NCBI GenBank assembly: GCA_965216325.1 | Contig: OZ244160.1 | Coordinates: forward strand, 1,216,001-1,280,000 | Source: Coraliomargarita sp. | GTDB lineage: Bacteria; Verrucomicrobiota; Verrucomicrobiia; Opitutales; Coraliomargaritaceae | DNA length: 64,000 nt | Direction of reading: 5' to 3' | Part shown: one piece after another, positions 2,326 to 38,064 of the stretch | How the letters are laid out: each line of letters starts with the position of its first letter | Position numbering within the stretch: position 1 is the first letter of the stretch | Made by a program: the position numbers and the translations under genes | The notes under the pieces: model-generated | Databases searched by the model: none | What the model was told of the DNA's origin: nothing | The model's input: only the letters and a program-made list of their open reading frames with translations

Positions 2326-2778
2326 TTAGCGAACCTCTGATGCGTTGTTATACAACACCGTATACAGCACCCCCAAGAGATTCTTACGTGTCACACGCTC
2401 TGCATCTTCGCGGGCATTGTTAATCCCTTTGGCAACCCAAGCGTCATTGCCCGCTTTGCGCACCAATTGGTGCAACACACGCTGACCATCCTTCGTCAGA
2501 TAGCCCACGGTCATCCCCGCCTCCAGGTCTTCAAATTCTATCGGACGCACAATGATAATGGTATTCTTGGTCAACACCGGTTCCATCGATGTCCCACTCG
2601 TGCGCGCCATATACATCCCACTATCCCGGAACTTGACTTTCTGCCCAAGCTTGAAGGCCTCATCATAGTCGATCGGTGCAAAAGTAGTCGTGCTGGACCC
2701 GGAAGTGGCAGTTGTCTGGCAGCCAACAAGCAGCACCAGCGTGAGACTAGCAAGGAACATAAAGAGGTTTTTCGACAT
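2326..2778 (-). CDS. Lipoprotein with S26 (SipW/Sec11-like) peptidase domain
   Basis: Lipobox LLVG-C; SGTSMEP (catalytic Ser box), VLHQL (His), KGINN...D (box E-like). Confidence 0.75.
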   Translation of the reverse strand: MSKNLFMFLASLTLVLLVGCQTTATSGSSTTTFAPIDYDEAFKLGQKVKFRDSGMYMARTSGTSMEPVLTKNTIIIVRPIEFEDLEAGMTVGYLTKDGQRVLHQLVRKAGNDAWVAKGINNAREDAERVTRKNLLGVLYTVLYNNASEVR

Positions 2779-2940
2779 ACGCTTACAATCCGCATCTACG
2801 TATTCATAGCAAGTCCGATTAAGTAACTAAAACGCGCCCCTACACGTAACTCAGGGGAGACCCCCTAGTCCATGTAAACGAAGTTTAAAAACCGAACAAC
2901 CAAGCCACATCCCACTATATGCCAACAACTTGCTATTCAT

Positions 2941-2958
2941 CTACGTGATTTTACGTAG
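2941..2958. promoter_or_regulatory. Palindromic operator CTACGT-N6-ACGTAG
   Basis: Perfect 6-6-6 inverted repeat in the divergent intergenic region. A second imperfect palindrome, CTCAGGGGAGACCCCCTAG, lies at 2850-2868. Confidence 0.45.
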
Positions 2959-3060
2959 CCTACATACGTTGTATTATTTTCTCTTTTCAGAAAATAAAAC
3001 CGCCCAATATACAAGTTAGACGCGATACCCATAGAGCCCTCAAAAAGATATTATGAGGGC

Positions 3061-3534
3061 ATGAAAACAACAGTCATTACCCTCCTCGCCCTTCTCACTG
3101 CAGTATTCACATTATCTGCAGCACCCAAGTCCTCCGCGACTTTTGAAAAAGCACTTAGCGACGCAGAATTCATCGCATCTTTCGATTCCAACTGGAGCGT
3201 GCACCGCACACAAGGCAACTCCATGGGAGACTTCTTCGGCAGCAACTCTTTAATTGTTGTCGAAAAGGCATCCATCGAAGACATCCGCACTGGTATGATG
3301 ATTGTTTACCGCTCCTCCAAGGGCGAATTGATCTCCCACAAAGTAATGAAGCACAACGGAACTTCGCTTCGCACCCAAGGCACCGCAAATTGGAGCATGG
3401 ATCCAGAGCCAGTAACAGCCGACATGATCGTGGGCACAGTATTCTGTGTCTTCCACGCTGAAAGCGCTCCAGCCGGCACAGCATACACTTCCAATGGCAC
3501 ACCGCTGCCAACTGCAATGTGCAAGTCTTTCTAA
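3061..3534 (+). CDS. Secreted S24/S26-family (SipW-like) peptidase
   Basis: Signal peptide MKTTVITLLALLTAVFTLSA; QGNSM (Ser), ISHKV (His), TQGTAN...D; paralogous to 2326..2778. Confidence 0.7.
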   Translation: MKTTVITLLALLTAVFTLSAAPKSSATFEKALSDAEFIASFDSNWSVHRTQGNSMGDFFGSNSLIVVEKASIEDIRTGMMIVYRSSKGELISHKVMKHNGTSLRTQGTANWSMDPEPVTADMIVGTVFCVFHAESAPAGTAYTSNGTPLPTAMCKSF

Positions 3535-3596
3535 CCCACGTTCTTTAATTTTAATGAGTTTCCGGATGGAATTTGTTGTTTTCCTCCGTCCGGCAT

Positions 3597-3647
3597 AAAA
3601 GAGCCCCTTCCGCACCCTCCCCCTAGCGGGAGGGGCTTTTCTTTTTG
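3597..3647 (+). terminator. Intrinsic terminator
   Basis: AGCCCCTTCCGC...GCGGGAGGGGCT followed by TTTTCTTTTT. Confidence 0.7.
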
Positions 3648-3663
3648 CAGTCTACTTAACATT

Positions 3664-4395
3664 ATGACACAGCTTCTTGAAAAACCATCCCAGAGCCACG
3701 ACTCTGATTCTTCCAGCATCATTGATATGAAAAAAGTCATCGTCATTGAAGACCAGACGATCCTTAGAGACTTAATTTGCCAACTTGTTGAAGGCTATAC
3801 CGCTATGGATGTCATTGCACAGTCCGGCGACGGTGCCGAGGGCTATGAACTCTGCCTTGAGCATAACCCGGACCTGGTAATTCTCGATATCATGTTGCCG
3901 AACTTGAACGGCAGCGAAGTGCTTCGCCGCCTCAAGGCCAAGAACCCAAAGATTAACATTTTGATCTTCTCCGCTGCGGCATCCAATAGCATGGTGAATC
4001 GTCTGCTCAAGTCAGGCGTCACCGGTTACATCGAAAAGGATGCCGGCCTTGCCGAACTGGAAAAGGCAATCTCTCTTGTCGCTGACGGCCGATCTTACTT
4101 CAGCCCACGCATCGTTGAAACCATGCGCGAACTCATGATCAATGGTGGTCAAGATGACTCGCTGGACTCCCTGACAACACGTGAGCGCGAGATCGTGCAA
4201 CTAATCGCAGAAAGTTACAGCAACAAGGAAATCGCTGCGAAGTTAGGCATGAGTGTGCGCACCGCCGACACACACCGCACCAACATCATGAAAAAGCTCG
4301 ATCTGCACGACGTGGCCGCCCTTACACGCTGGGCGATCGCGAATAAGCTGGTTGACCCGATTGGTGGCGACATCAGCACTGCTGAGCAGTTTTAA
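3664..4395 (+). CDS. NarL/FixJ-family (LuxR-HTH) response regulator; alternative start ATG 3727
   Basis: Receiver domain (IEDQ, LDIMLP, YIEKD) plus LTTREREIVQLIAESYSNKEIAAKLGMSVRTADTHRTNIMKKL HTH. Confidence 0.93.
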   Translation: MTQLLEKPSQSHDSDSSSIIDMKKVIVIEDQTILRDLICQLVEGYTAMDVIAQSGDGAEGYELCLEHNPDLVILDIMLPNLNGSEVLRRLKAKNPKINILIFSAAASNSMVNRLLKSGVTGYIEKDAGLAELEKAISLVADGRSYFSPRIVETMRELMINGGQDDSLDSLTTREREIVQLIAESYSNKEIAAKLGMSVRTADTHRTNIMKKLDLHDVAALTRWAIANKLVDPIGGDISTAEQF

Positions 4396-4452
4396 TTATT
4401 CAGCATTCTCAGGGTTGCAAAATCCAGCCAAGCTGATCCTGTCAGCTACCCT

Positions 4453-4977
4453 ATGAGTATCGCAACGAAACGCGGGGACGCAGGTGTGACGTCCCTACTC
4501 TTCGGACGTCGAGTCCCCAAGACACATCCACGCGTCGTCGCCTATGGCGGCGTTGACGAACTTGGAAGCTCGTTGGGACTTTGCCGTGCACACAGCGCGG
4601 ACGACACCACCAAGGCGCTGCTACGCGAGGTGCAGGGTGAACTAATCTATCTAATGTCCGAACTCGCAACGGATGATGGCGACCAAGCGCGCTGGCACGA
4701 AAAATATGGCGAAAACGCAATTACGAACGAGAACGTGGAGCGCTTCACCAATCTAATCAAAGAGAAGGAACAACATATTCAATTTCGTGGCTGGAGCTAC
4801 CCGGGCGAAAATCCAGCCGAGGCGTTTTTTGACCAAGCGCGCACAACCTGTCGCCGCGCAGAACGAGGAATCGTTGAACTCAAGGAAAGCGGAGTCGCCG
4901 TGCGTCCTGAGTTGCTACAATACCTAAACCGCCTGGCAGACTTACTTTGGCTACAAGGCCGTGAACATGCCGAATAG
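4453..4977 (+). CDS. ATP:cob(I)alamin adenosyltransferase, PduO type
   Basis: IATKRGDAGVTSL, AYGGVDELGS, ARTTCRRAER, YLNRLAD motifs. Confidence 0.92.
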   Translation: MSIATKRGDAGVTSLLFGRRVPKTHPRVVAYGGVDELGSSLGLCRAHSADDTTKALLREVQGELIYLMSELATDDGDQARWHEKYGENAITNENVERFTNLIKEKEQHIQFRGWSYPGENPAEAFFDQARTTCRRAERGIVELKESGVAVRPELLQYLNRLADLLWLQGREHAE

Positions 4978-26111: not shown

Positions 26112-27386
26112 TCAGCGCACCTCAAAGGTGCGTTGGGCTTGGAGTGAACGTGTTTCCAGCAGCTCGACCAGCCTATCCAATACCGGATGCTCAATCCCCT
26201 GATCGCGAAGCTCGCGATGCACCTGTCCCGCATACTCTGGTATTTGTGAAGCCATTTCGATAAGCATACGAAAAACCGACGCAACAGGAAACCCGCAGGA
26301 TCTAGCCATCTTCTCAAAATGACGCGGTTGAATCTGAGCGTCCCTGTAATAGCTGCCGATCTTCATCGCGAATCGGCAATCTTTACGACGATCCACGTAA
26401 GGTAAAAACGACGCAATATCATACAAGCGCGCAAGGCGGACCTGCTGCTGCCGTCCCAATAATAGGCTGTAATTTTTCGCATGCGCATCAGTCCCAAGGA
26501 TCAAATAGTTAAAGATGATGGCCTCCATGACCCGACGCCGGTCCTCAATCGACTGACTCGAACGATCCATCAGCGCCATCAATTGAACAATGTCAGGCCC
26601 TCCCTCGTTTTGATATTTCCGAGACGGATGCACACCAAGCGCTTGACAAACATCCTCCTGGTGAACCCGTGTAAGCTGACCATTTGCACTCACTCGGTCA
26701 TAACGTTCTACAACAATTGCGGCTTCTTCGCCAAAATACATCACCTTGCTCCGAGCAACCGACAAGCCGAGCGCAGCTGCCAAACGCAAACAGAAGTGTT
26801 CATTTTCGACATGCCCATCCAAGTCACTCCGCGGAGGCTTGAGAATATGCGTTGTAGGCTCACTGCCCCACGGCACATACCACTGTTGCCCGTGCTGCTG
26901 TAGTGCCGTTTTGGATTGAGCACCTGCCAGAGAAAACTGCCCACGGTCAGCAGGCTCTCGCCCCAAAGCCGGATCCTTCTTCAAATCGGCTAATCGCTGC
27001 TCTACATCACTTTCACTCAGAGCTTCCTTGCCGCCATCGGCGAATTCTTCCGCATCCTCGGGCCGAATGAAACGAACCGCGCCAGCGCAATCCTCCCCAA
27101 CTCCTTTGAGTAGGCTGTAGCAATTTCCCGGGCTGACATGAAAACGCTGCCCCCAGCGAGCCAAAATCAGTTCATTGTCTGGCAATAAGCCCCAGAGCCA
27201 TGGGCTAATCTTTTCATGCCCATAGTCTCGGTCATCCAAAGGAATCGCCAGCGACAATGGCACTCCGTAACCACTCCCTAGATAGCCTTCATGGTAGCGA
27301 AAACTCAATCGACCGCCCCTAGCACGCACAAGCTGCCCCATGGGGACCTCGTTTAGGAATACCTGTAATGAATCTGTTGCCATCAT
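26112..27386 (-). CDS. hipA: HipA-family toxin kinase
   Basis: N-terminal coupling domain (LSLAIPL...GLLPDN); FSLAGAQSK, ERYDR, HQED, DAHAKNYS, LYDI. Confidence 0.95.
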   Translation of the reverse strand: MMATDSLQVFLNEVPMGQLVRARGGRLSFRYHEGYLGSGYGVPLSLAIPLDDRDYGHEKISPWLWGLLPDNELILARWGQRFHVSPGNCYSLLKGVGEDCAGAVRFIRPEDAEEFADGGKEALSESDVEQRLADLKKDPALGREPADRGQFSLAGAQSKTALQQHGQQWYVPWGSEPTTHILKPPRSDLDGHVENEHFCLRLAAALGLSVARSKVMYFGEEAAIVVERYDRVSANGQLTRVHQEDVCQALGVHPSRKYQNEGGPDIVQLMALMDRSSQSIEDRRRVMEAIIFNYLILGTDAHAKNYSLLLGRQQQVRLARLYDIASFLPYVDRRKDCRFAMKIGSYYRDAQIQPRHFEKMARSCGFPVASVFRMLIEMASQIPEYAGQVHRELRDQGIEHPVLDRLVELLETRSLQAQRTFEVR

Positions 27387-27982: not shown

Positions 27983-28291
27983 ATGTTTAAATTTAAGACA
28001 GAGCAGGAAATTGCCCAGCATGTTGCGAGTCGAATCCGTGCTGTGAGGGTTTCGCAGCAATTAACCCAGAAGGTGCTCAGCCAGCGTTCCGGGGTCTCGC
28101 TGGCATCCTATCAACGCTTCGAGCAGACCGGGCGCATTGAATTCCTGAGTCTTATCAAGGTTGCGCAGGCACTTCACTTGGAAGACGACTTTGAAGGATT
28201 GTTTGATCGCCGTAGCGCAATGACCTTGGATCAAATCGAACAACGAGCACAGCCAGCCACACGCAAAGGACGTGTCTATAAGCACTCATGA
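27983..28291 (+). CDS. XRE-HTH antitoxin of the second hipBA module
   Basis: LTQKVLSQRSGVSLASYQRFEQTGRIEFLSLIKVA; ATGA overlap with the HipA gene. Confidence 0.88.
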   Translation: MFKFKTEQEIAQHVASRIRAVRVSQQLTQKVLSQRSGVSLASYQRFEQTGRIEFLSLIKVAQALHLEDDFEGLFDRRSAMTLDQIEQRAQPATRKGRVYKHS

Positions 28292-29520
28292 AACGCCTGA
28301 ATGTAATGCTTGGCAGCAGGCATGTGGGCGAGCTTCTGGCTCAGGATGGGGCTCACTACTTTAGCTACAGCGAAGATTTCCTACAAGACCCGCTGCCCTT
28401 GTCACCTTACGAACTACCCGCAGCTCCCGGCACCACACATCACACGAAAGGTTATTTCGCGACACTGCCGGGGCTAGTTTATGACTCGCTGCCAGATCGC
28501 TTTGGTATGTCCGTGTTACGTGCGGCGTTTCGCGCCCAGGATATCCCCAGCCCGAGTCCGCTACAGATGCTAAGCTATTTAGGTGAACGAACTATGGGTG
28601 CCTTGAGTTATGAGCCCTGCAAAGAGGATCTGGATGCACAACAAGCCATCGATCTAGTCAGTACTGCACGATCAGCGAAGGAGATTCTGGCCTACGAACA
28701 TGGCGAGAACTTGGATCCTGCTATCATGCGGGCGGGCGGCACAGCCGGAGGCGCAACTCCTAAGCTGCTCGCAGCGATCTCTGCTGATAACGGGAAAATT
28801 ATCACCGGTGCGAGCGAGATTCCGTCGGGGATGCAGGCTTGGTTGATCAAGTTAAATACCGCCGAGCAACAAGCCGCCGCACTTGCGCAACTGGAGCATG
28901 CTTACTTTCAGATGGCTCGCACTGCCGGTATTCGAGTTCCCAATACGCAATTGCTCTCCGACGCCAACGACGTTCAACACTTTGCAATCGAACGCTTTGA
29001 CCGTGATCTGAAGAATCCCAATCAGCGTATCCACATCCACAGCTATGCCGCAATGGCCGGACTCGATTTCAGCGCACCGGACTGCGACTATGAAGACCTC
29101 TTGCGCCTGACCAAGCACCTGACCCGCAACTTCGAGGATGTCTCTGAGCAGTTCAGACGCATGCTGTTCAATTTGTTGGCCTGCAACCGCGATGACCATG
29201 CGAAGAACTTTTCGTTCCAGATGGATGCGAGTGGCCATTGGAGCCTCACGCCCGCATACGACTTACTCTATACTGACAACGAGCTCGGCGGCAACTGGAT
29301 GCTACTTAGTGGCAAGCGCAGTAACATTTGCTATGACGATTTATTGAAACTCGCAGAACTGATGGGGATATCGAAGCGTCGCTTTGATGAGATGCTCTCA
29401 GAGGTGCAAGACGCACTCGCACAGTGGCAAGACATCGCAAAACAAAGTGGCGTCGGAACCGGGCTACGTAGAACCGTGCAAATCGTGCTAAAGGACCTGA
29501 ACAAGCAATTAAAGCAGTAG
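28288..29520 (+). CDS. hipA: HipA-family toxin kinase (second, divergent subfamily)
   Basis: DSLPDRFG, MGALSY, GTAGGATPK, WLIK, ERFDR, NRDDHAKNFSF, LTPAYDL. Confidence 0.93.
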   Translation: MKRLNVMLGSRHVGELLAQDGAHYFSYSEDFLQDPLPLSPYELPAAPGTTHHTKGYFATLPGLVYDSLPDRFGMSVLRAAFRAQDIPSPSPLQMLSYLGERTMGALSYEPCKEDLDAQQAIDLVSTARSAKEILAYEHGENLDPAIMRAGGTAGGATPKLLAAISADNGKIITGASEIPSGMQAWLIKLNTAEQQAAALAQLEHAYFQMARTAGIRVPNTQLLSDANDVQHFAIERFDRDLKNPNQRIHIHSYAAMAGLDFSAPDCDYEDLLRLTKHLTRNFEDVSEQFRRMLFNLLACNRDDHAKNFSFQMDASGHWSLTPAYDLLYTDNELGGNWMLLSGKRSNICYDDLLKLAELMGISKRRFDEMLSEVQDALAQWQDIAKQSGVGTGLRRTVQIVLKDLNKQLKQ

Positions 29521-29610
29521 CTCCTCCCCTCGCTAAATCGCATCACGCATTGATCGTTCATGCTGATGAAACGCCTTCAAAAAGCTTTTCCTCAAATGAG
29601 TGATTAGATG

Positions 29611-30114
29611 TCAAGAATCCAGCATTGCTCTCCCAAGCCAAGAGTCCGGCACAATGTTGAGTTGAACATCACCATCATCAACAATCGCGTAAGCAGACTG
29701 TGCCATGTCGATACAATAGGAACGTCCTTTCTGTGTCTGCTTCGCACAACGCGTATGTCCGACAATCTGCGGGACTTCTAAGCTGTCTTCAAATTCATCA
29801 TCCCAGTCCAGCCACAATGGGCCGCCATGGGGTGCGATACCACCACGCGCAGCTCCAGCAGCGAAGATGGGATCTTGAGCCTCCTGATAAATATGCTCGA
29901 AGGCATACTCCCAGTAAGCATCAAAGCGCTTCATCTTTTCCTCCGGAGTCTTTCCGGACTCCGACCACCAGTTGGGATGCACACCCGCATGAGAAAACAA
30001 CCAGCCGTCGAGTAGAACGGCGCCTTTAAGCCCTTTCCAGAATGACTCTGTCCATGCGGTGTTGATAATCTCGGCGCGTTCACAGGTCGTCGATCCAAGC
30101 CACTGACTGATCAC
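29611..30114 (-). pseudogene. C-terminal remnant of a calcineurin-like metallophosphoesterase
   Basis: FSHAGV, GGPLWLDW and QIVGHT are present. The N-terminal DxH/GD/GNH motifs are absent and an in-frame stop lies just upstream. Confidence 0.7.
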
Positions 30115-30411
30115 TGGGTTCGGCTTGCCGGTATGCGATTCTCGAACCAGCTAAGTTCCACACAACGCCAACGGCAAAGCTTATTCAGAGCTGGGCTTGA
30201 GGACATCCTTAGAATGATCCAACAGCGATACTCGGAGCATTCAAAGACTAGACAGTATGCCAGATGTCAAATGGACGCATTTCAAGCTTGGCTTAAAAGC
30301 GATTGCTGCGAGGAGATTTTTCTCGTGTAATGTGAACTGCAGTAGAAAATCTACTGTCCACGCTCGGAACTTGCACTTAATGCAATTGTCCGTTCAATAG
30401 TTCTAATTGTT

Positions 30412-30768
30412 ATGCGCATCTACCTCTACAGCCTACTTGCTCTACTGCCACTCTTTGGCCTACCCTTGAGTGCAACTGCCTGTAGCTGTAATCACGCAGA
30501 AAGCACTAATTCTGGTATTTACACGGTGCCCTGCTGTCAGGAAATGCCTGCAGATTGCTGTGTGCAGCAGGATCAGGAGCCGAAACCGAAGGTGTATATG
30601 GTGGCGCCACAGCAGGACTCATCCAGCGCCGCACCAGCAAGCATATCTACTCTAACCGGGGAACGGGCGATTCTTCGCCCCCAGACAGGTAGTTTTTGCA
30701 ATCGGGCACGCCCCCCGCCGCTGCAAGCCAGCGAGCATCGATGCCGCATACAGTCTTGGTTGAACTGA
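30412..30768 (+). CDS. Secreted Cys-rich leader protein with RARPPP motif (DUF2946-like)
   Basis: Signal peptide; CSCNH, PCC and DCC clusters; FCNRARPPP near the C-terminus; first gene of a transporter operon. Confidence 0.7.
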   Translation: MRIYLYSLLALLPLFGLPLSATACSCNHAESTNSGIYTVPCCQEMPADCCVQQDQEPKPKVYMVAPQQDSSSAAPASISTLTGERAILRPQTGSFCNRARPPPLQASEHRCRIQSWLN

Positions 30769-30770
30769 AC

Positions 30771-30870
30771 CTGTGATTCGTTCGTCATCACGGCCATCGA
30801 TTGATGGGCGTGTTCCTCTATGTATCGGCCGGGATCCAACCGAGCCGTGTGCACTGTAAACGAATCACAG
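30771..30870 (+). promoter_or_regulatory. Intergenic RNA structure closed by a perfect 12-bp stem
   Basis: CTGTGATTCGTT (30771-30782) pairs with AACGAATCACAG (30859-30870); inner CACGGC/GCCGTG and CCATC/GATGG. Confidence 0.7.
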
Positions 30871-30874
30871 AGAT

Positions 30875-32302
30875 ATGGTCCAAGCATCTGATCTATATAC
30901 GCCCCCAGGAGGCAAGGAATCCCCTCCAAAGAAATCCAAACAATCACTCCAGCGACTGGCTAAATATCTGCCAATCGCCCTCATTCTTGCGTTCTTGCTA
31001 TTAATCGCACTGTTTTTCGGCGATCGATTTGTGCCCGCGCACGAACTGCAATTCGAATCTGTCGTCACACAGCGCAGCCAAGTGGCTAAGACGCCCGCCT
31101 CAAGCAACGCAACCGGTCTCAAACTAAATTTCGAAGGCCAAGCGCTGTTTCAAGCATCCGGCTGGATTGAAGCCGACCCGCTGCCGTTTCATGTTCCGGC
31201 CCTTAATGATGGCTTCGTCGACACGGTTCACGTCCTCGAGGGAGAACGAGTCGCCAAAGGTCAACTCCTCGCCAAGCTGGTCGATGATGACGCTCGACTT
31301 GACCTGACGACCGCGCAAGCCCGGCAAGGTGAGCGTACTGCAGCCTTACTAGAGATGCAGGCACTCGTGCGCACCACTCATGCCGCACTTCAACGTCTGG
31401 GCGAAGAGGTCGAAATCGAAGAGGCTCGGCTTGAGGAACTTCGTGATGATGAAACCCGCCTCCTCGCAGTTGGCTCGAAGAGTGTTTCCGAACAGGAAAT
31501 TGCCAAGTCTCGCTTACGTGTGCTCACCCAGCGCGCAGTGATTAAGGCACTCGAAGCCAATCGGGGAGAACTTGAAGCTGAACTTGCCGCACGCACCGCA
31601 GCCGTGGAGCGCACCAAGCAAGAACTTCAGTCAGCCCAAACCGATGTTGCGCGCAAACAATTGGCACTGGATCGTATGGAAATCCGCAGCCCAATCGATG
31701 GCATTATCCAAAAGCTCTACGTCTCACCAGGCTTTAAGCGCATGGCACGTATGGATGACCCAGAGTCTTCGACGGTAGTCAAAATGTTCGACCCGGAGGC
31801 TCTGCAAGCGCGTATCGACGTGCCGCTGGAAGAAGCCGCACAGCTAGCAATCGGCCAACCCGTCCGACTTCGTTCAGTCTTTCTTCAAGACAAGGTCTTC
31901 GAAGGCCGCGTCAGCCGCATCTACGGCCAAGCCGATCTTCAGCGCAATACGCTACAGGCCAAAGTCCAACTACTAAGTTCATCCGAAGGGCTGCGCCCAG
32001 AGATGCTCTGTCGTGCTGAATTTTTAGCTCCAGCATCGAATGGCCAGTCGGCATCAGCTCCAAGCAGTGGTCGCGCCGCCGTCTATGTTCCCAACAAAGC
32101 ATTGGTTGAACAAGCCGGCCAATACTACGTCTGGACCTTGGATAAGTCCGGCAAGCGAGTCACGCAGCAAGCCATCCGCCTGGCTCCCGAAGAACGTGAT
32201 GATTTTCGTCGCGTGAGCGAAGGCCTACAGCCAGGTGCCCGTGTCGTAATCAACCCACCGACTGACCTCGAGGAAGGCGACCGCATCCGACTAACCCCCT
32301 AA
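30875..32302 (+). CDS. Periplasmic adaptor (MFP/HlyD/MacA family)
   Basis: N-terminal TM, VLEGERVAKGQLLA lipoyl motif, long coiled coil, IRSPIDG, LRPEM. Confidence 0.92.
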   Translation: MVQASDLYTPPGGKESPPKKSKQSLQRLAKYLPIALILAFLLLIALFFGDRFVPAHELQFESVVTQRSQVAKTPASSNATGLKLNFEGQALFQASGWIEADPLPFHVPALNDGFVDTVHVLEGERVAKGQLLAKLVDDDARLDLTTAQARQGERTAALLEMQALVRTTHAALQRLGEEVEIEEARLEELRDDETRLLAVGSKSVSEQEIAKSRLRVLTQRAVIKALEANRGELEAELAARTAAVERTKQELQSAQTDVARKQLALDRMEIRSPIDGIIQKLYVSPGFKRMARMDDPESSTVVKMFDPEALQARIDVPLEEAAQLAIGQPVRLRSVFLQDKVFEGRVSRIYGQADLQRNTLQAKVQLLSSSEGLRPEMLCRAEFLAPASNGQSASAPSSGRAAVYVPNKALVEQAGQYYVWTLDKSGKRVTQQAIRLAPEERDDFRRVSEGLQPGARVVINPPTDLEEGDRIRLTP

Positions 32303-32323
32303 ACACTACACATATTTGAAACA

Positions 32324-33052
32324 ATGACCGAATCTCAACAACAGCCCCTTATCCGCTGCCGCGGGCTCTCAAAGACTTACCATAAAGGCAGCACCGCTGT
32401 CACTCCGCTTGAAGCACTCGATCTCGACGTCCCGCGCGGTGAATTTCTCGCCCTAATGGGGCCATCCGGTTCCGGAAAAACCACCCTCCTCAACCTCATC
32501 GCCGGCATCGACCACCCATCAACCGGCGAACTCTGGGTCGGCGACCGAAACCTCGCAACGCTCTCCCGAGGGGAGCTCACCAGCTGGCGCGCGCGTCACT
32601 GTGGCTATATTTTTCAGCTCTACCATCTCGTGCCGATTCTAACTGCATTCGAAAATGTAGAACTACCACTTCTACTCGACTCCGAGCTAAGCCGCGACGA
32701 GCGACGTGCCAAAGTGAACGCTGCGCTCGAACTCGTTGGCCTGTCAGACCGAATGGACCACCGTCCCTGCGAGCTCTCCGGCGGACAAGAGCAACGTGTC
32801 GCCATCGCTCGAGCGATTGTGGCAGCCCCAGATCTACTTGTAGCCGACGAACCAACTGGCGACCTAGACCGCGAGTCTGCCACCTCAATCTTGGAATTAA
32901 TGCGCGAGCTATCGGCAGACTTCGGAAAAACGATCGTCATGGTGACACACGACGCGGTCGCCGCCAAAGCTGCCCACCGTACCTTGCACTTGGAAAAAGG
33001 GCAACTCATCGAACAGGCTCGTATTCAACACACCACTACAACTGCATCATGA
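32324..33052 (+). CDS. ABC transporter ATP-binding subunit (MacB/LolD type)
   Basis: GPSGSGKTT, GYIFQLYHL, LSGGQEQRVA, ADEPTGDLD. Confidence 0.95.
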   Translation: MTESQQQPLIRCRGLSKTYHKGSTAVTPLEALDLDVPRGEFLALMGPSGSGKTTLLNLIAGIDHPSTGELWVGDRNLATLSRGELTSWRARHCGYIFQLYHLVPILTAFENVELPLLLDSELSRDERRAKVNAALELVGLSDRMDHRPCELSGGQEQRVAIARAIVAAPDLLVADEPTGDLDRESATSILELMRELSADFGKTIVMVTHDAVAAKAAHRTLHLEKGQLIEQARIQHTTTTAS

Positions 33053-34191
33053 AACTGCGCCACACACTCAACCTAGCACTCAAGCAAGTGCTTCGCCATC
33101 GCGTGCGTAGCTTACTGACGATTGCTGGTGTCGGCGCAGGCATGTTTCTCTTCACCGCGGTGCAAACGATGCAGCATTCACTTGCCCGAGTCATTCAGAG
33201 TAGCGCAAATGACAACGTGCTCGTCGTGTATCGAGAGAACCGCTTTTGTCCGATGACCTCTCGCTTACCAGAGCACTATTTAAGTGAGATCAAACGCATC
33301 GACGGCGTAACCGAAGCTATTCCAATTCAAATCGCAGTCAACAACTGCGGGGCAAGCTTGGATGTCATTACCTTTCGCGGCGTGCCACCAGAGACCCTCA
33401 GTCGATACAATCCTGAACTCGAAATCAGAAGCGGGTCTCTGGAGCAGTGGCAGTCACGCAGCGATGCAGCACTCGTAGGCGAAAACCTTGCTCGCAGGCG
33501 TGGCCTCACCCCCGGTGATACCTTTGAAGCCGTTGGTGTGCGTGTCTGGGTTGCTGGGATCGTCAACTCTCCACTCCAACAAGACAACAACGTGGCCTAT
33601 GTGCACCTGCCCTACCTGCAACAGGCATCCCGTATCGGACTCGGCACGGTCACTCAATTCAATGTGCGTGTTGGTGACAGCTCACAAATCGATGTAGTCG
33701 CCACAGCCATCGACGAGCTATTTGCCTCCGACAGCGCCCCCACAACCACCCGTCCAGAAAAGGCATTCTTCATCCAGACCGCGCGCGACATGATTGAGAT
33801 GATCAGCTTCACTCGCTGGATTGGCCTCGGCGCAGTGCTGGCAGTCTTAGGGCTGGTGGGTAACGCACTACTCCTCGCGGCACGCGGGCGCGTTCAGGAA
33901 AGCGCAATCTTTCAAACAATTGGCTACTCCCGCCGCATGGTGGGCTCCATCATGGTTGGGGAAGGCGCAGTGTTGGGCTTGGCCGGCGGACTGATTGGTA
34001 GCCTAAGTGCCTCACTCTTCTTCTACCTGAGAAGTTACACGATAGGAAACGAAGGTCTAAGCCTTGCGCTTTCCCCAAGCCTCAGCGTGACCGCCGCTGC
34101 ACTGGCGATTGCTTGTGGACTCGGCCTCATCGCTTCGCTCTGGCCCGCATGGATCGCTGCAAAACAACCACTGGTTAAATCCCTACGTTGA
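33049..34191 (+). CDS. ABC permease, MacB/FtsX family
   Basis: RSLLTIAGV TM1, periplasmic domain with RFCP and NNCG cysteines, C-terminal FtsX TMs (PAWIAA). Confidence 0.9.
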   Translation: MKLRHTLNLALKQVLRHRVRSLLTIAGVGAGMFLFTAVQTMQHSLARVIQSSANDNVLVVYRENRFCPMTSRLPEHYLSEIKRIDGVTEAIPIQIAVNNCGASLDVITFRGVPPETLSRYNPELEIRSGSLEQWQSRSDAALVGENLARRRGLTPGDTFEAVGVRVWVAGIVNSPLQQDNNVAYVHLPYLQQASRIGLGTVTQFNVRVGDSSQIDVVATAIDELFASDSAPTTTRPEKAFFIQTARDMIEMISFTRWIGLGAVLAVLGLVGNALLLAARGRVQESAIFQTIGYSRRMVGSIMVGEGAVLGLAGGLIGSLSASLFFYLRSYTIGNEGLSLALSPSLSVTAAALAIACGLGLIASLWPAWIAAKQPLVKSLR

Positions 34192-35363
34192 TCGAGATGA
34201 AAGTATTTAAAATACGCTTACTCCCCTTTGCCTATGCTACGCGCAATCTCCTGCGCGACATTCCACGCTTGCTGCAAAAAATCGGCGGTTCATCGGTCGT
34301 CGTTTTTTTGGTGCTCGCGGCCGGAGCCTTCAATGAGGGCATGAAGTCAGTGCTGCGAGCAAGCGGAGCACCCAACAACGTGATCCTACTCAGTGCAGGC
34401 TCCGAAGAAAGTGTTGAGCGCGGTGAAATCGACGTTCAAGTCGAGTCACTCGCTGCGGGCATTCGCGGCATCGAAAGCCGCTTAGGACAACCTGCTGCCT
34501 CAGGCGAAGTGCATTTCATGGGCGAGCTGGCTTCTAGCGACGCAGGCGCACAACAGGCGCTCCTACGCGGCATCACGCCGGCGGCATTCGAAGTGCATCG
34601 CGAAGTGCGCATCCTTGAGGGCGAGTTTCCTTCATCGGGCGAAGTGCTCGTTGGACGACTGGCACACCACATGCTCGGACTCACAGCACAGCAACTTGAG
34701 CCCGGAAGTTTCATCAATTTTGAAGGACAAACCTTCACTGTGTCTGGCATATTCGAAGCGCCGGGAACCGTGATGGAGTCGGAAGTGTGGTTTGACCGTA
34801 GTGATCTAATGACACTCACCCAGCGTGAATCACTCTCCTGCGTGATCCTTCGACTCGAGAGTCCTGAGAACTTTTCAACAGTAGATCTCTTTGCAAAGCA
34901 ACGCCTAGACTTAGAGCTAAGCGCCATTCGTGAAGTCGACTATTACGATCAGTTGTCTGGTTTCTTTGCACCGATACGTGCAATGACTTGGCTGACTGCG
35001 GGATTGATTTCCGCTGGTGCTATCTTTGGTGGCTTTAATCTTCTCTACGCCGCCTACGCCTCTCGCATTCGAGAACTGGCAACGCTGCAAGCCATCGGCT
35101 TTCGGCGCGCCGCAGTATTCATATCACTCGTGCAAGAAAGTCTACTCGCAACCTTGAGCGGCACTTTGCTCGCCGCCTTTGCCGCCTTAATTTTCCTCGA
35201 AGGCCAAGCCGTGCATTTCTCGATTGGCACCTTTTCCTTGGAGCTCAGTAGTCCTGTTATCAGTGCAGGACTACTGATGGGACTCCTACTAGGCGTGCTC
35301 GGTGCGGTGCCCCCTGCGATTCGATGCCTGGGTGCACCACTGCCAGACACACTTCGCTCATAA
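34188..35363 (+). CDS. ABC permease, MacB/FtsX family (second)
   Basis: YATRNL, RIRELATLQAIGF, PPAIR. Confidence 0.9.
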   Translation: MIEMKVFKIRLLPFAYATRNLLRDIPRLLQKIGGSSVVVFLVLAAGAFNEGMKSVLRASGAPNNVILLSAGSEESVERGEIDVQVESLAAGIRGIESRLGQPAASGEVHFMGELASSDAGAQQALLRGITPAAFEVHREVRILEGEFPSSGEVLVGRLAHHMLGLTAQQLEPGSFINFEGQTFTVSGIFEAPGTVMESEVWFDRSDLMTLTQRESLSCVILRLESPENFSTVDLFAKQRLDLELSAIREVDYYDQLSGFFAPIRAMTWLTAGLISAGAIFGGFNLLYAAYASRIRELATLQAIGFRRAAVFISLVQESLLATLSGTLLAAFAALIFLEGQAVHFSIGTFSLELSSPVISAGLLMGLLLGVLGAVPPAIRCLGAPLPDTLRS

Positions 35364-35387
35364 CACAAAATTCAACAAAGATATAAA

Positions 35388-35918
35388 ATGAAATTAAAGA
35401 CATCCCAATTACCAGCAGCATGCCTCAGCGCCCTCATTCTAGTGACCACTGCCTGCAGCCCGTCAGGCGAGGAACTCACAGTTTCTGAAGCAAACCACGC
35501 AGTCAAAGCCTTACTTCTAAGCGAAGCCCCCGTAGATAGCCTCAGCGTATTCGAAGCACGCAAACAGGCTCAACCCGGCGCCCCCATTCAAGTAACCGGT
35601 CAAATCGGTGGAACCCTCCACCCCTTTGTTCAAGGCTATGCGAGTTTCGTCTTAGCCGATCCTAGCTTGGAATTCTGCGACGAAATGGGTGATGACCACT
35701 GCTCGACTCCTTGGGATGCCTGCTGCGAAGATCCTGACAAACTAAAGTCGATGCGGATCTACGTCCAATTTCTGGATAGCACTGGCATTCCGATCCAGAG
35801 TAACTTGAAGGAAAGCATCGGCATCAAGGAACTCGACCAAGTAACCGTAGTCGGTACTGTCGCAGAATCATCCACTTCAACCAATACGATCATCAACGCC
35901 ACAAGCCTCTACAAATAA
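35388..35918 (+). CDS. Lipoprotein with C-x7-CxTPWDxCC motif
   Basis: Lipobox VTTA-C; FCDEMGDDHCSTPWDACCED; beta-rich VTGQIGG and VTVVGTV segments. Confidence 0.8.
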   Translation: MKLKTSQLPAACLSALILVTTACSPSGEELTVSEANHAVKALLLSEAPVDSLSVFEARKQAQPGAPIQVTGQIGGTLHPFVQGYASFVLADPSLEFCDEMGDDHCSTPWDACCEDPDKLKSMRIYVQFLDSTGIPIQSNLKESIGIKELDQVTVVGTVAESSTSTNTIINATSLYK

Positions 35919-36489: not shown

Positions 36490-38064
36490 ATGACTAGTAA
36501 AGCACTCTCCTTCAAGCGCCCTGAAGAAGACTTGTCCTCGCTCGAACTCCTTGCTGGAGAATTCACCAACACCGATGCGGCCATCGCAGAGATCGCACGT
36601 TTGTCCGCAGTTTTGACGCTCCCTAGAGGCGCAATTCACATGATTAGTGATATCCACGGTGAAGACAAAAAGTTACGGCATGTGATCAACAATGCATCCG
36701 GCACACTGCGCCCACTCGTGGAACAAATGTTCGGCGACAAGATAACGGCCGATGAGTTGAAGGATTTTCTGAAGATCACCTTTTATCCAGCCGAAGTCAC
36801 CGATCAGCTCGAAAAGACGCTCACAGATCCAGAGCAGCTGAAGCAGTATGCACGCAGAATTCTAAATCCACAATTTGAGCTGTTACGTCACCTCATGGGT
36901 AATTACAGCCTCAAACTGGCAACTGAGTTGCTGCCTACCGATTTCCAAAACCTGCTCCTTGAAATCCTCCATGCCCCAACACGTGAGCACGGGCATGAAT
37001 TTGTAGAAGCAATTATCGACGAGCTACAGCGCCAAGGCCGCGTGCTACATCTAATTCATATCGTCGGTCGCTTAATTCGTAACCTTGCAGTTGACGAGTT
37101 GATTATAGGTGGCGATTGCTGGGACCGCGGACCACGTGGTGACCGTGTCGTCGATTACCTACGCCTCCAACCCAATGTCTCTTTTATCTGAGGCAATCAT
37201 GATGCACTGTGGCTTGGTGCAGCCTTAGGCCACGAAGCGTTGATTTGCACAGCGCTACGTGTTTCTCTACGCTATCGCCGCATAAGCCAATTGGACGAAG
37301 GATATAGCGTGCCGCTCACCCCGCTCGAACGCCTCGCACGCGAAGTGTATGCAGACGATCCGGCCGAGTTTTTCATGCCCAAAGGAGAAGGAATGCGTCC
37401 GAAAGAACTCGTCGCACGCATGCAGAAAGCCGTTGCGGTAATGCAGTTCAAACTCGAAGGACAAATGATCGAACGTAATCCACACTGGGAGCTCGATCAT
37501 CGTCGCCTAATGCATCGCATCGACCTTGAAAACGGCACCATAGAAATTGATGGCGTCGTATATGAGCTGCGTGACAAATACCTGCCCACTGTCGATCCAC
37601 AGAACCCATACGCCCTAACAGCAGAGGAACAAGACTGCTTGGACCGATTGAAAGCCTCGTTCCTCAGCAGTCAAAAGCTACGCGAACAAATGCGCTACAT
37701 GGTTGGCCACGGGTCCATGTATCTCCAACGTGGAGATTGCCTCATTTTCCATGGCTGCGTTCCCACCGACCCCGAGGGTAATTTTCTTAGCTTTGAGATC
37801 GACGGCGAAGCCTACGGAGACCACGGCTATACTCTCGTGCTCGAACCTCACAGAATTGTTTTAGCCGAACACCATCACTTCGAATCCATGGAATCTGCGA
37901 TCAAGGACGGGGTCGACATTGTGCCGCAGACACAAGACATCCGTGTTTTTGAGACACCCCAATGCACCCAAGACACCGAGCGCGGCAAACGTATCAAATA
38001 TCGGATCAAAGAACTACAGCGGCTCATTAAAGCCTATCGCAGTAATCGTTTACACGAGCGATAG
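36490..38064 (+). pseudogene. fbp: Class III fructose-1,6-bisphosphatase, disrupted
   Basis: SDIHGE, HVINNASG, GDCWDRGP, FHGCVP. In-frame TGA at 37189-37191 replaces the W of WGNHD. Probable internal deletion near 37810. Confidence 0.85.

Follow-up and report, generated by a model that had tools for sequence, protein, structure and literature searches.

On the forward strand of a 64-kb stretch of the Coraliomargarita sp. genome (positions 1,216,001 to 1,280,000 of contig OZ244160.1; hereafter the window), six consecutive genes at 30412-35918 encode a small cysteine-rich leader, a membrane fusion protein (MFP), an ATP-binding cassette (ABC) ATPase, two different permeases (P1 and P2) and a lipoprotein. 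We propose, at a probability of about 0.55, that this locus is a metal-induced, MacB-type tripartite periplasmic efflux system with a Cys-loop accessory lipoprotein. The proposal draws on sequence and gene context: the co-occurrence of the genes in two phyla, the invariant residues of the lipoprotein and of one permease, the structured spacer behind the leader, and the metal-related genes that share operons with these components in relatives. From the MFP to the lipoprotein the genes are packed tightly: two of the junctions overlap by 4 nt, and the other two leave 21 and 24 nt between genes:

30412-30768, + strand: leader, a small, putatively exported Cys-rich open reading frame (ORF) of 118 aa; no Pfam or NCBIfam family
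30770-30871, + strand: structured spacer from the leader stop to the MFP start; stem-loop prediction with conserved arms, no Rfam family
30875-32302, + strand: MFP (periplasmic adaptor), 475 aa; PF16576 HlyD_D23 6e-17, TIGR01730 RND_mfp 135.7 bits (cut-off 94.9)
32324-33052, + strand: ABC ATPase of the LolD/DevA/MacB clade, 242 aa; PF00005 ABC_tran 2.8e-34
33049-34191, + strand: permease 1 (P1), FtsX/MacB-type, 380 aa; PF12704 MacB_PCD and PF02687 FtsX
33247-33249, + strand: codon of P1 Cys67 (RFCP), periplasmic, invariant
33346-33348, + strand: codon of P1 Cys100 (NNCG), periplasmic, invariant
34188-35363, + strand: permease 2 (P2), FtsX/MacB-type, 391 aa; PF02687 FtsX and PF12704 MacB_PCD
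35388-35918, + strand: lipoprotein, 176 aa, lipobox Cys23; no Pfam or NCBIfam family

An earlier interpretation made from the letters alone (the sequence-only reading) had described a tightly packed operon running from MFP to lipoprotein and had joined the leader to it as a six-gene system. All five genes lie where it placed them and the six form a conserved unit, the leader falling just outside the interval it gave. For the two proteins without an assigned family, the lipoprotein and the leader, Pfam returns no match even at E ≤ 10.

Conservation of the operon and class of the pump

Whole-genome searches found lipoprotein homologues in 39 of the 401 Verrucomicrobiota and 123 of the 401 Planctomycetota genomes sampled, and 33 places in the former phylum and 40 in the latter were fetched for comparison (labels such as L001 denote these stretches of relatives' genomes, with about 9 kb of flank on each side). 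The Cys motif is present at 28 of the 33 Verrucomicrobiota places, including the variants TYWD (L060) and final CS (L061), and at 25 of these 28 the MFP, ATPase, P1 and P2 genes stand directly upstream. At L059 and L061, which have no ABC genes, the lipoprotein gene follows a leader-like ORF and a CopA-type multicopper oxidase. L058 is a second lipoprotein copy in genome G078, its Cys loop intact, preceded by just fragments of P2 and MFP and by a leader-like ORF; it appears to be a decaying duplicate of the operon. In Planctomycetota the motif occurs at all 40 places and the ABC genes at 37, in two arrangements: 25 loci are ordered as in the window, and 12 run leader-(HMA)-P2-lipoprotein-MFP-ATPase-P1, HMA being a heavy-metal-associated domain protein. 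Since both orders hold P2 and the lipoprotein together, their adjacency is kept. The co-occurrence of the lipoprotein with this type of ABC system, which the sequence-only reading had made a test of its proposal, is thereby borne out in both phyla.

The places that depart from this pattern are informative in their own right. The three Planctomycetota exceptions are L215, where the lipoprotein gene directly follows a resistance-nodulation-division (RND) gene of the CusA/CzcA family, L216, where it follows RND and outer-membrane factor (OMF) genes, and one place with neither ABC nor RND. Because the lipoprotein serves ABC, RND and oxidase contexts alike, it would seem to handle the substrate rather than to be a subunit or a cargo of the ABC machine. 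At five Verrucomicrobiota places, all from one genus (E ~1e-25), all four cysteines are replaced and no pump lies nearby, while Trp109 is kept. Because in this genus the four cysteines and the pump context were lost while the fold persists, the Cys loop is probably the functional site.

Both permeases possess the FtsX domain with four transmembrane segments (PF02687; 8e-09 in P1 and 1.7e-09 in P2, both past the cut-off) and the MacB_PCD periplasmic domain (PF12704; 53.2 bits in P1 and 36.9 bits in P2, cut-off 27), and profile searches list 5xu1, YtrF, LolC/E and MacB as solved relatives of P1. The two halves are not equivalent: Cys67 and Cys100 of P1 are kept in 65 of 65 orthologues, and again in 49 of 49 in a second alignment, whereas the orthologue alignments of P2 contain an invariant W201 and no invariant cysteine. 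By its domain content the pump is a member of the MacB family, yet it stays under every named equivalog cut-off, the best NCBIfam models for the ATPase being LolD (228.6 bits, cut-off 307.75), DevA (208.8) and MacB (194.3). Membership in LolCDE was rejected, with lolCE at 60.8 against 362.45 bits in addition to the LolD shortfall.

An MFP is present at every ABC-linked locus. TolC-like OMF genes adjoin the operon at 8 of the 25 ABC-linked Verrucomicrobiota loci, and tblastn gives OMF-like matches at Planctomycetota loci as well (OMF2 in 2, OMF3 in 5 and OMF4 in 5; the sets may overlap). Because OMF genes adjoin the operon in relatives, the pump appears tripartite in design. The sequence-only reading was right that the locus itself holds no TolC gene: none was found within the 64-kb window, and the three complete OEP genes of this genome (one contig, 99.98% complete) all lie outside it.

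The same features invite comparison with a Lol-like machine, in which the two-permease ABC complex would extract the lipoprotein as its cargo from the inner to the outer membrane. Such a machine would account for the LolC/LolE-like permease heterodimer, for LolD being the best match of the ATPase, and for the P2 gene always standing directly before that of the lipoprotein. However, the Lol equivalog cut-offs are missed by far, the constant MFP and frequent OMF suit a tripartite efflux duct, and the lipoprotein also occurs without ABC genes, behind RND pumps (L215, L216) or a multicopper oxidase (L059, L061). We consider a Lol-like role very unlikely, and the same loci disfavour the idea, entertained in the sequence-only reading, that the lipoprotein is cargo.

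The lipoprotein and its cysteine loop

The loop of the lipoprotein reads C97-x6-H104-C105-S-TPWD-A-C112-C113 (codons 35676-35726). Among 49 orthologues from the two phyla, D91, C105, P108, W109, D110, C112 and C113 are invariant, and C23 of the lipobox and C97 are at least 90% conserved, whereas His104 varies among homologues. The cysteine motifs singled out in the sequence-only reading, RFCP and NNCG in P1 and the TPWD loop here, are all present and are conserved far beyond chance, but its 'Cys/His cluster' has to be redescribed as a loop of four cysteines and a tryptophan. A word-based search returned 108 homologues from Coraliomargarita, Lentimonas and Opitutales relatives, all unnamed or 'hypothetical', and an exhaustive search of representatives extends the family to 850 representative clusters at E ≤ 1e-3.

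In the AlphaFold2 model (pLDDT 85.4), an N-terminal helix is followed by a beta-barrel, and the Cys loop (residues 91-115) forms an insertion devoid of regular secondary structure. Foldseek matches the model to the anticodon domain of Lys/Asp-tRNA synthetases at 1.7e-4, and the VIA-align Z scores are 8.2 for OBody (the best), 7.9 for the MCM N-terminal domain and 7.3 for both CcmE and YgiW, values under 8 being evidence for a shared fold only. Families with the oligonucleotide/oligosaccharide-binding (OB) fold appear at about 0.8 in the protein Atlas, in clusters that are otherwise unnamed. The lipoprotein is therefore predicted to adopt a five-stranded OB fold. At the level of sequence it stands apart: a profile search of the PDB gives a best match of only E = 0.21, the lipoprotein has no match to CusF_Ec (PF11604) in Pfam at E ≤ 10, and Cus proteins are absent from its 50 best fold matches. 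Longer, fused forms of the lipoprotein were sought and none was found, which is weak evidence. Tandem-duplicated forms of about 280-400 aa do exist (P0109, P0187 and P0252), with one Cys loop intact and the other degenerate, and P0187 carries an extra C-terminal Cys-rich DUF6370 domain.

Could the lipoprotein dock on the permeases? A prediction of the complex of P1, P2 and the mature lipoprotein reaches an ipSAE of 0.45 (0.43-0.51 among runs), against 0.00 for the best of the controls, among them one with P2 exchanged; the runs share at least 67% of contacts, with partner pLDDT of at least 71. The mark used for such predictions is reached by 116 of 157 solved complexes and by 2 of 215 mismatches, but scores that pass it at an ipSAE of 0.60 or lower comprise 18 of the 157 solved complexes and both passing mismatches, and our run differs from the calibration in using three chains and 49-row alignments of our own making. 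Of the structure predictions that the sequence-only reading had called for, the one of the lipoprotein alone thus arrives at the OB fold, and the one with the permeases lends its docking weak support.

The leader and the structured spacer

At most loci, a small Cys-bearing ORF with a hydrophobic N-terminus precedes the first pump gene. In the window leader, the conserved hydrophobic N-terminus ends in SATA before the first cysteine and is followed by C24-x-C26, CC41-42, CC49-50 and PPP101-103. An alignment of 29 leaders shows C24, C41 and C42 to be invariant and C49 and C50 at least 90% conserved. The cysteines and the C-terminus aside, the leaders diverge fast (19% mean column identity); what they keep is a cysteine just past the hydrophobic segment, both CC pairs, in most cases a PP motif, and a C-terminal tail of hydrophobic residues. 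A word-based search retrieves 3 close relatives only, a local hidden Markov model (HMM) of the leader finds relatives at 31 of 76 test loci and in none of 40 control windows, and further divergent versions can be seen by eye beyond the HMM matches.

The spacer between leader and MFP is predicted to fold into a three-way structure, in which an outer stem of 10-12 bp encloses two inner hairpins. This stem opens 2 nt past the stop codon of the leader and closes 4 nt ahead of the ATG of the MFP. Its arms show no change among the window, L001, L002 and L034, but the interior is variable. The window spacer has a minimum free energy of -47 kcal/mol (z -3.8), with none of 200 shuffles equally stable; RNAalifold on the window clade recovers 28 pairs, 3 with compensatory change, and no Rfam family matches the spacer. 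In 130-nt windows taken from leader stop codons (n=32), the median z against shuffles is -1.87 and 15 of 32 lie below -2, compared with a median of -0.05 and 3 of 64 below -2 in random windows of the same loci (Mann-Whitney p = 9e-8). Masking of the start is thus suggested by the stem of the window clade, the wider loci contributing folding z-scores only.

This arrangement resembles that of CutF. In Rhodobacter capsulatus, CutF is described as a small protein exported by the Sec route, which has a CxxxC motif for copper and a C-terminus rich in proline (10.1101/2022.11.11.516240), and binding of copper during its co-translational export as stalling the ribosome, so that a stem-loop hiding the ribosome-binding site of the downstream multicopper oxidase is melted (10.1101/2022.11.11.516240; 10.1101/2025.02.05.636593). 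CutF-like genes are reported there to be widespread upstream of OEP, CusA, CusB (HlyD_D23) and CusF genes (10.1101/2022.11.11.516240), and CutF itself is assigned to Pfam DUF2946 (10.1101/2025.02.05.636593). Closest to the leader in architecture are the members of this class: cutFOG of R. capsulatus, CruR of Bordetella and CopL of Xanthomonas. Like them, the leader is an ORF of under 150 aa with a Cys motif and a short same-strand spacer, whose stem-loop is proposed to mask the next translation start; its signal-like N-terminus and the prolines towards its C-terminus recall the class. At L059 and L061 a leader-like ORF stands in front of a multicopper oxidase, the position that cutF has relative to cutO. 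With its 118 aa (<150) and a same-strand spacer of 106 nt to the MFP (<1000), the leader agrees with the rules on length and distance for CutF-like proteins, and its cysteines agree with the rule of a Cys/His metal-binding motif. It differs from CutF in having a C-x-C and two CC pairs in place of CxxxC, in the lack of a DUF2946 match, in the distance of its PPP from the C-terminus, and in the MacB-type ABC system encoded downstream; the main text of 10.1101/2022.11.11.516240 mentions neither FtsX, MacB, ABC, Planctomycetes nor Verrucomicrobia. We propose by analogy that the leader has the architecture of a CutF-like metal-sensing upstream ORF, one that was searched for membership in DUF2946 and did not match it. 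The sole link to that family is a match of the local leader HMM, at E = 2e-4, to a DUF2946 protein encoded a few kb from the operon in L054 (1224-1625, minus strand; 26.8 bits, cut-off 23.7). The sequence behind this L054 gene folds with exceptional stability, at -67.5 kcal/mol over 130 nt (z -7.0).

An alternative role for the leader is that of the exported product: a Cys-rich or metallophore-like peptide, expelled by the pump, with the lipoprotein as an immunity or maturation factor. The signal-like N-terminus and the many cysteines of the leader would suit such a role, MacB-type pumps export peptides elsewhere, and DarC and DarD of the darobactin exporter are among the weak NCBIfam matches. 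Yet no modifying enzyme is conserved at the locus, the leader evolves very fast except for its cysteines and C-terminus, leader-like ORFs also precede multicopper oxidase or HMA protein genes, and the conserved stem links the leader stop to the start of the next gene, which is a regulatory design. We regard the exported peptide as scarcely probable.

The locus is represented in RNA libraries. Contigs of a 99%-identical strain, from three runs of one sample, cover the genes from leader through lipoprotein and bridge the leader-MFP spacer, and none covers 29500-30446. RNA runs under the species label of the window itself had no match to the stretch, which is not evidence of absence. These contigs differ from the window by 6 nt inserted in frame within the Gln-rich portion of the leader (30563-30567) and by 16 single-letter changes over the operon, which look like strain variation.

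Metal context, proposed mechanism and significance

Metal-related genes accompany the operon in a number of relatives. Heavy-metal-efflux RND (HME-RND) pumps score above the TIGR00914 cut-off of 701.45 at L179 (719.5 bits), L047 (752.2) and L216 (752.9), the pump of L215 reaching 658.8. ZntA-like P1B ATPases lie near the operon in L047 (580.5 bits) and L207 (631.4), and a ZigA-like GTPase adjoins it in L001. Between the leader and P2, tblastn finds a signal-bearing HMA protein in L191 and L200-L202, confirmed by Pfam HMA for L191 and L201 and carrying the motif MxCxxC. Directly upstream of the MFP, L190 (14132-14488, minus strand) and L195 (4064-4444, plus strand) have ArsR-family regulators (PF01022) with a CVC motif. 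This motif falls in the DNA-binding region of both; the filter for upstream Cys-rich ORFs retains the ArsR ORF alone in L190, and in L195 the ArsR ORF together with ORFs that have no leader features. The link to metals put forward in the sequence-only reading is upheld by this company of heavy-metal RND pumps, ZntA-like P-type ATPases, multicopper oxidase, periplasmic HMA protein and ArsR regulators.

A metal gene lies within about 9 kb at 11 of 40 Planctomycetota loci and in 2 of 40 control windows placed 150-300 kb away on the same contigs (tblastn with fixed, author-set thresholds; Fisher p = 0.013, a test that takes related genomes as independent, though they are not). In Verrucomicrobiota the tally is 4 of 32 loci, and in a motif-based set, used for this tally only and consisting of the 80 kept out of 207 relatives, mostly close kin, it is 3 of 80.

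These counts bear on the possibility that the pump is a generic MacB-type exporter of an organic or envelope substrate (a lipid, glycolipid, peptide or xenobiotic), that the lipoprotein is a disulfide-held structural or substrate-presenting protein, and that the metal genes are coincidental. The ATPase and permeases do score best, if weakly, to the LolCE, DevC, DevA and MacB models, the solved relatives named above (MacB, LolC/E, YtrF) belong to the same circle, periplasmic cysteines mostly form disulfides, and at the majority of loci the 9-kb flanks contain no metal gene. But coincidence fits poorly with single operons that hold an HMA protein, an ArsR regulator, an HME-RND pump or a multicopper oxidase, or with the enrichment over control windows; nor would it explain a Cys-rich leader of CutF-like architecture with a start-masking stem, or why homologues that have lost the four cysteines also lack the pump context. 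We judge an organic substrate unlikely, though the least so of the alternatives considered here.

Periplasmic metal detoxification in Gram-negative bacteria is currently attributed to RND pumps (Cus, Czc), multicopper oxidases and P-type ATPases. Searched over all but 24,000 of its bases, the genome of the window encodes P1B ATPases but lacks an HME-RND pump (best 336 bits, under the 701.45 cut-off) and gives no match for a multicopper oxidase; because of these two absences, the operon would be its only recognisable periplasmic metal-detoxification system.

A metal could also be supplied rather than removed, the lipoprotein and pump loading cuproenzymes or zinc proteins in the manner of NosL. 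Multicopper oxidases have to be loaded with copper, and in L059 and L061 one of them stands before the lipoprotein gene; the GTPase adjoining the L001 operon resembles ZigA, a zinc chaperone. NosL itself is described as a lipoprotein copper chaperone encoded in a cluster with accessory factors, that is, a small lipoprotein metallochaperone next to its client machinery (PMC8457098); it differs in serving enzyme assembly and not efflux, and no relation in sequence or fold to our lipoprotein was seen. Against supply stand neighbours that mostly belong to efflux and detoxification (HME-RND pumps, ZntA-like ATPases, OMFs), the expulsion of substrates described for MacB-type pumps with MFP and OMF (PMC11481552), and the lack of a multicopper oxidase to load in the genome of the window. 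A supply function seems improbable to us. Beside these loci, we note that the lipoprotein gene is followed in both L059 (6762-7181 and 7186-8712) and L061 (9628-10047 and 10052-11578) by genes for a DUF420 membrane protein and an ABC1/UbiB-like kinase, a pair conserved between the two multicopper-oxidase loci. In L216 a His-rich small ORF (2336-2806, plus strand), hydrophobic at its N-terminus and bearing RAPP near its C-terminal end, comes before an MFP whose N-terminus is rich in His and Asp (2854-4488, plus strand); an HME-RND pump, an OMF and the Cys-loop lipoprotein follow in this order. The arrangement has the look of a sensor leader of the His type serving a pump for divalent cations.

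Other genes flank the operon in the window. Just upstream lie two HipA-like kinase genes (HipA_C and Couple_hipA) at 26112-27386 on the minus strand and 28288-29520 on the plus strand, each preceded by a small ORF; L001 has the ZigA-like GTPase in this place, and the kinase genes may be an insertion. Downstream, a class 3 fructose-1,6-bisphosphatase (PF06874) is broken over two plus-strand ORFs (36490-37191 and 37240-38064), which jointly span profile positions 3-430 of 639 and probably represent a truncated or broken gene.

Which known systems does the locus resemble? The nearest in logic is CusCFBA, which likewise has an MFP with the CusB-type HlyD_D23 domain, an OMF, and a small periplasmic beta-barrel protein whose gene accompanies those of the pump, and in L215 and L216 the lipoprotein gene itself ends operons of CusA/CzcA-family RND pumps. 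CusF binds Cu(I) with a tryptophan contact, and the loop of our lipoprotein has an invariant tryptophan. Unlike CusCFBA, the motor here is an ABC heterodimer (type VII, MacB-like) and not an RND trimer, and the accessory protein is a lipoprotein with a four-cysteine loop that CusF_Ec does not recognise. MacAB-TolC, PvdRT-OpmQ, DevBCA and LolCDE have in common with the locus the FtsX four-segment domain, MacB_PCD and an ATPase of the LolD/MacB clade, and the MacB-family pumps share the MFP partner and, in many relatives of this operon, the OMF partner. They differ in that the nucleotide-binding domain is here a separate polypeptide, that the two permeases are different and one of them has an invariant cysteine pair, and that a dedicated Cys-loop lipoprotein and a putative sensor leader are present.

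The closest metal-linked MacB system in the literature consulted is PA4063-PA4066 of Pseudomonas aeruginosa (ZrgABCDE in Vibrio cholerae), described as a Zur-regulated MacB-type system with a separate ATPase and with periplasmic accessory proteins whose genes always accompany it; one of them, PA4063/ZrgA, shows weak metal binding and has been put forward as a chaperone, and cobalt-pyochelin is the proposed substrate (PMC11481552). It is alike in its MacB-type exporter and small periplasmic accessories and, as far as that account describes it, unlike in having no MFP, a single permease and no leader; its accessories, to go by their description, have a ferredoxin-like fold (PMC8561739), which sets them apart from the OB fold predicted here. 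Literature searches on MacB/FtsX metal systems, CutF-type leaders and copper in Planctomycetes and Verrucomicrobia did not turn up a description of the six-gene system. The statement of the sequence-only reading that it matches no characterised system therefore stands for the six genes together, and has to be qualified for the leader, whose architecture is that reported for CutF-like genes (10.1101/2022.11.11.516240).

How might such a metal-induced efflux system work? From the features above we infer metal binding, ribosome stalling, hand-over and transport of the substrate, and the likely kinds of metal. The leader would act as the sensor, its cysteines binding metal in the periplasm during translation and export; the metal-bound leader would slow release of the ribosome at its Pro-rich conserved C-terminus, and the ribosome held at the leader end would melt the stem-loop that otherwise covers the translation start of the MFP. 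The MFP, the ATPase and the P1/P2 heterodimer would then form an ATP-driven mechanotransmission pump, expelling a periplasmic substrate through an OMF, whose gene many relatives have at the locus itself and this genome has elsewhere. The Cys4-Trp loop of the lipoprotein may serve to trap a thiophilic metal, be it Cu(I), Zn(II) or Cd(II), or else a metal-thiolate, and the lipoprotein might dock on the periplasmic domains of the permeases, probably on P2, and pass the substrate towards the Cys67/Cys100 pair of P1. More tentatively, and with the odds in our estimate somewhat against it, we suggest that PVC bacteria (Planctomycetes, Verrucomicrobia and their kin) possess here an ATP-driven, MacB-type counterpart of CusCFBA, a tripartite pump clearing thiophilic metal ions from the periplasm, in which an OB-fold Cys4-Trp lipoprotein chaperone delivers the metal to the P1 cysteine pair and a sensor peptide, exported as it is translated, acts as a translational switch. 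Were this so, it would be, to the extent of our searches, the first periplasmic metal-ion efflux pump of the ABC type to have a chaperone of its own.

Several observations count against a metal-induced efflux system. No recognisable metal gene lies within 9 kb at 29 of 40 Planctomycetota and 28 of 32 Verrucomicrobiota loci. The cues as to the metal conflict. Cu is suggested by the multicopper oxidase and the Cys-rich leaders; Zn, Cd, Co or Ni are suggested by ZntA-like ATPases, by the ZigA-like GTPase of L001 and, in L216, by a leader and an MFP rich in His. Neither the TM4 motif of the RND neighbours nor the PDB scores of the L216 pump (470 bits against CusA and 442 against ZneA) decide the metal. 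Since the periplasm is oxidising, all four cysteines of the loop and the cysteine pair of P1 could be engaged in no more than structural disulfides, and the docking of the lipoprotein on the permeases is predicted weakly. As to the leader, the HMM recognises a leader-like ORF at just 31 of the 76 loci; DUF2946 (PF11162) is absent at Pfam E ≤ 10 from the 14 operon-linked leaders scanned, and hhalign of the leader profile with the single DUF2946 protein of L054 yields a probability of 0.8%. The PPP of the window leader sits 16-18 residues from the C-terminus, just beyond the published 15-residue rule (many relatives have a PP 9-14 residues from the end, some none), and because its codons lie about 50 nt upstream of the stem, stalling would be needed at or near the stop codon. 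The RNA-library contigs come from one sample, in which carry-over of DNA is possible.

MacB-type pumps are known for handling antibiotics, peptides, siderophores and lipoproteins. If our proposal is true, metal efflux would gain a new motor class, in a system that occurs in roughly one in ten of the Verrucomicrobiota and one in three of the Planctomycetota genomes sampled. A large protein family, so far without a Pfam or NCBIfam model, would acquire a function, and translational metal sensing of the CutF type would reach into new phyla and control another kind of downstream gene. The permease heterodimer, with the invariant cysteines in one half only, offers a useful natural case for the study of asymmetric mechanotransmission.

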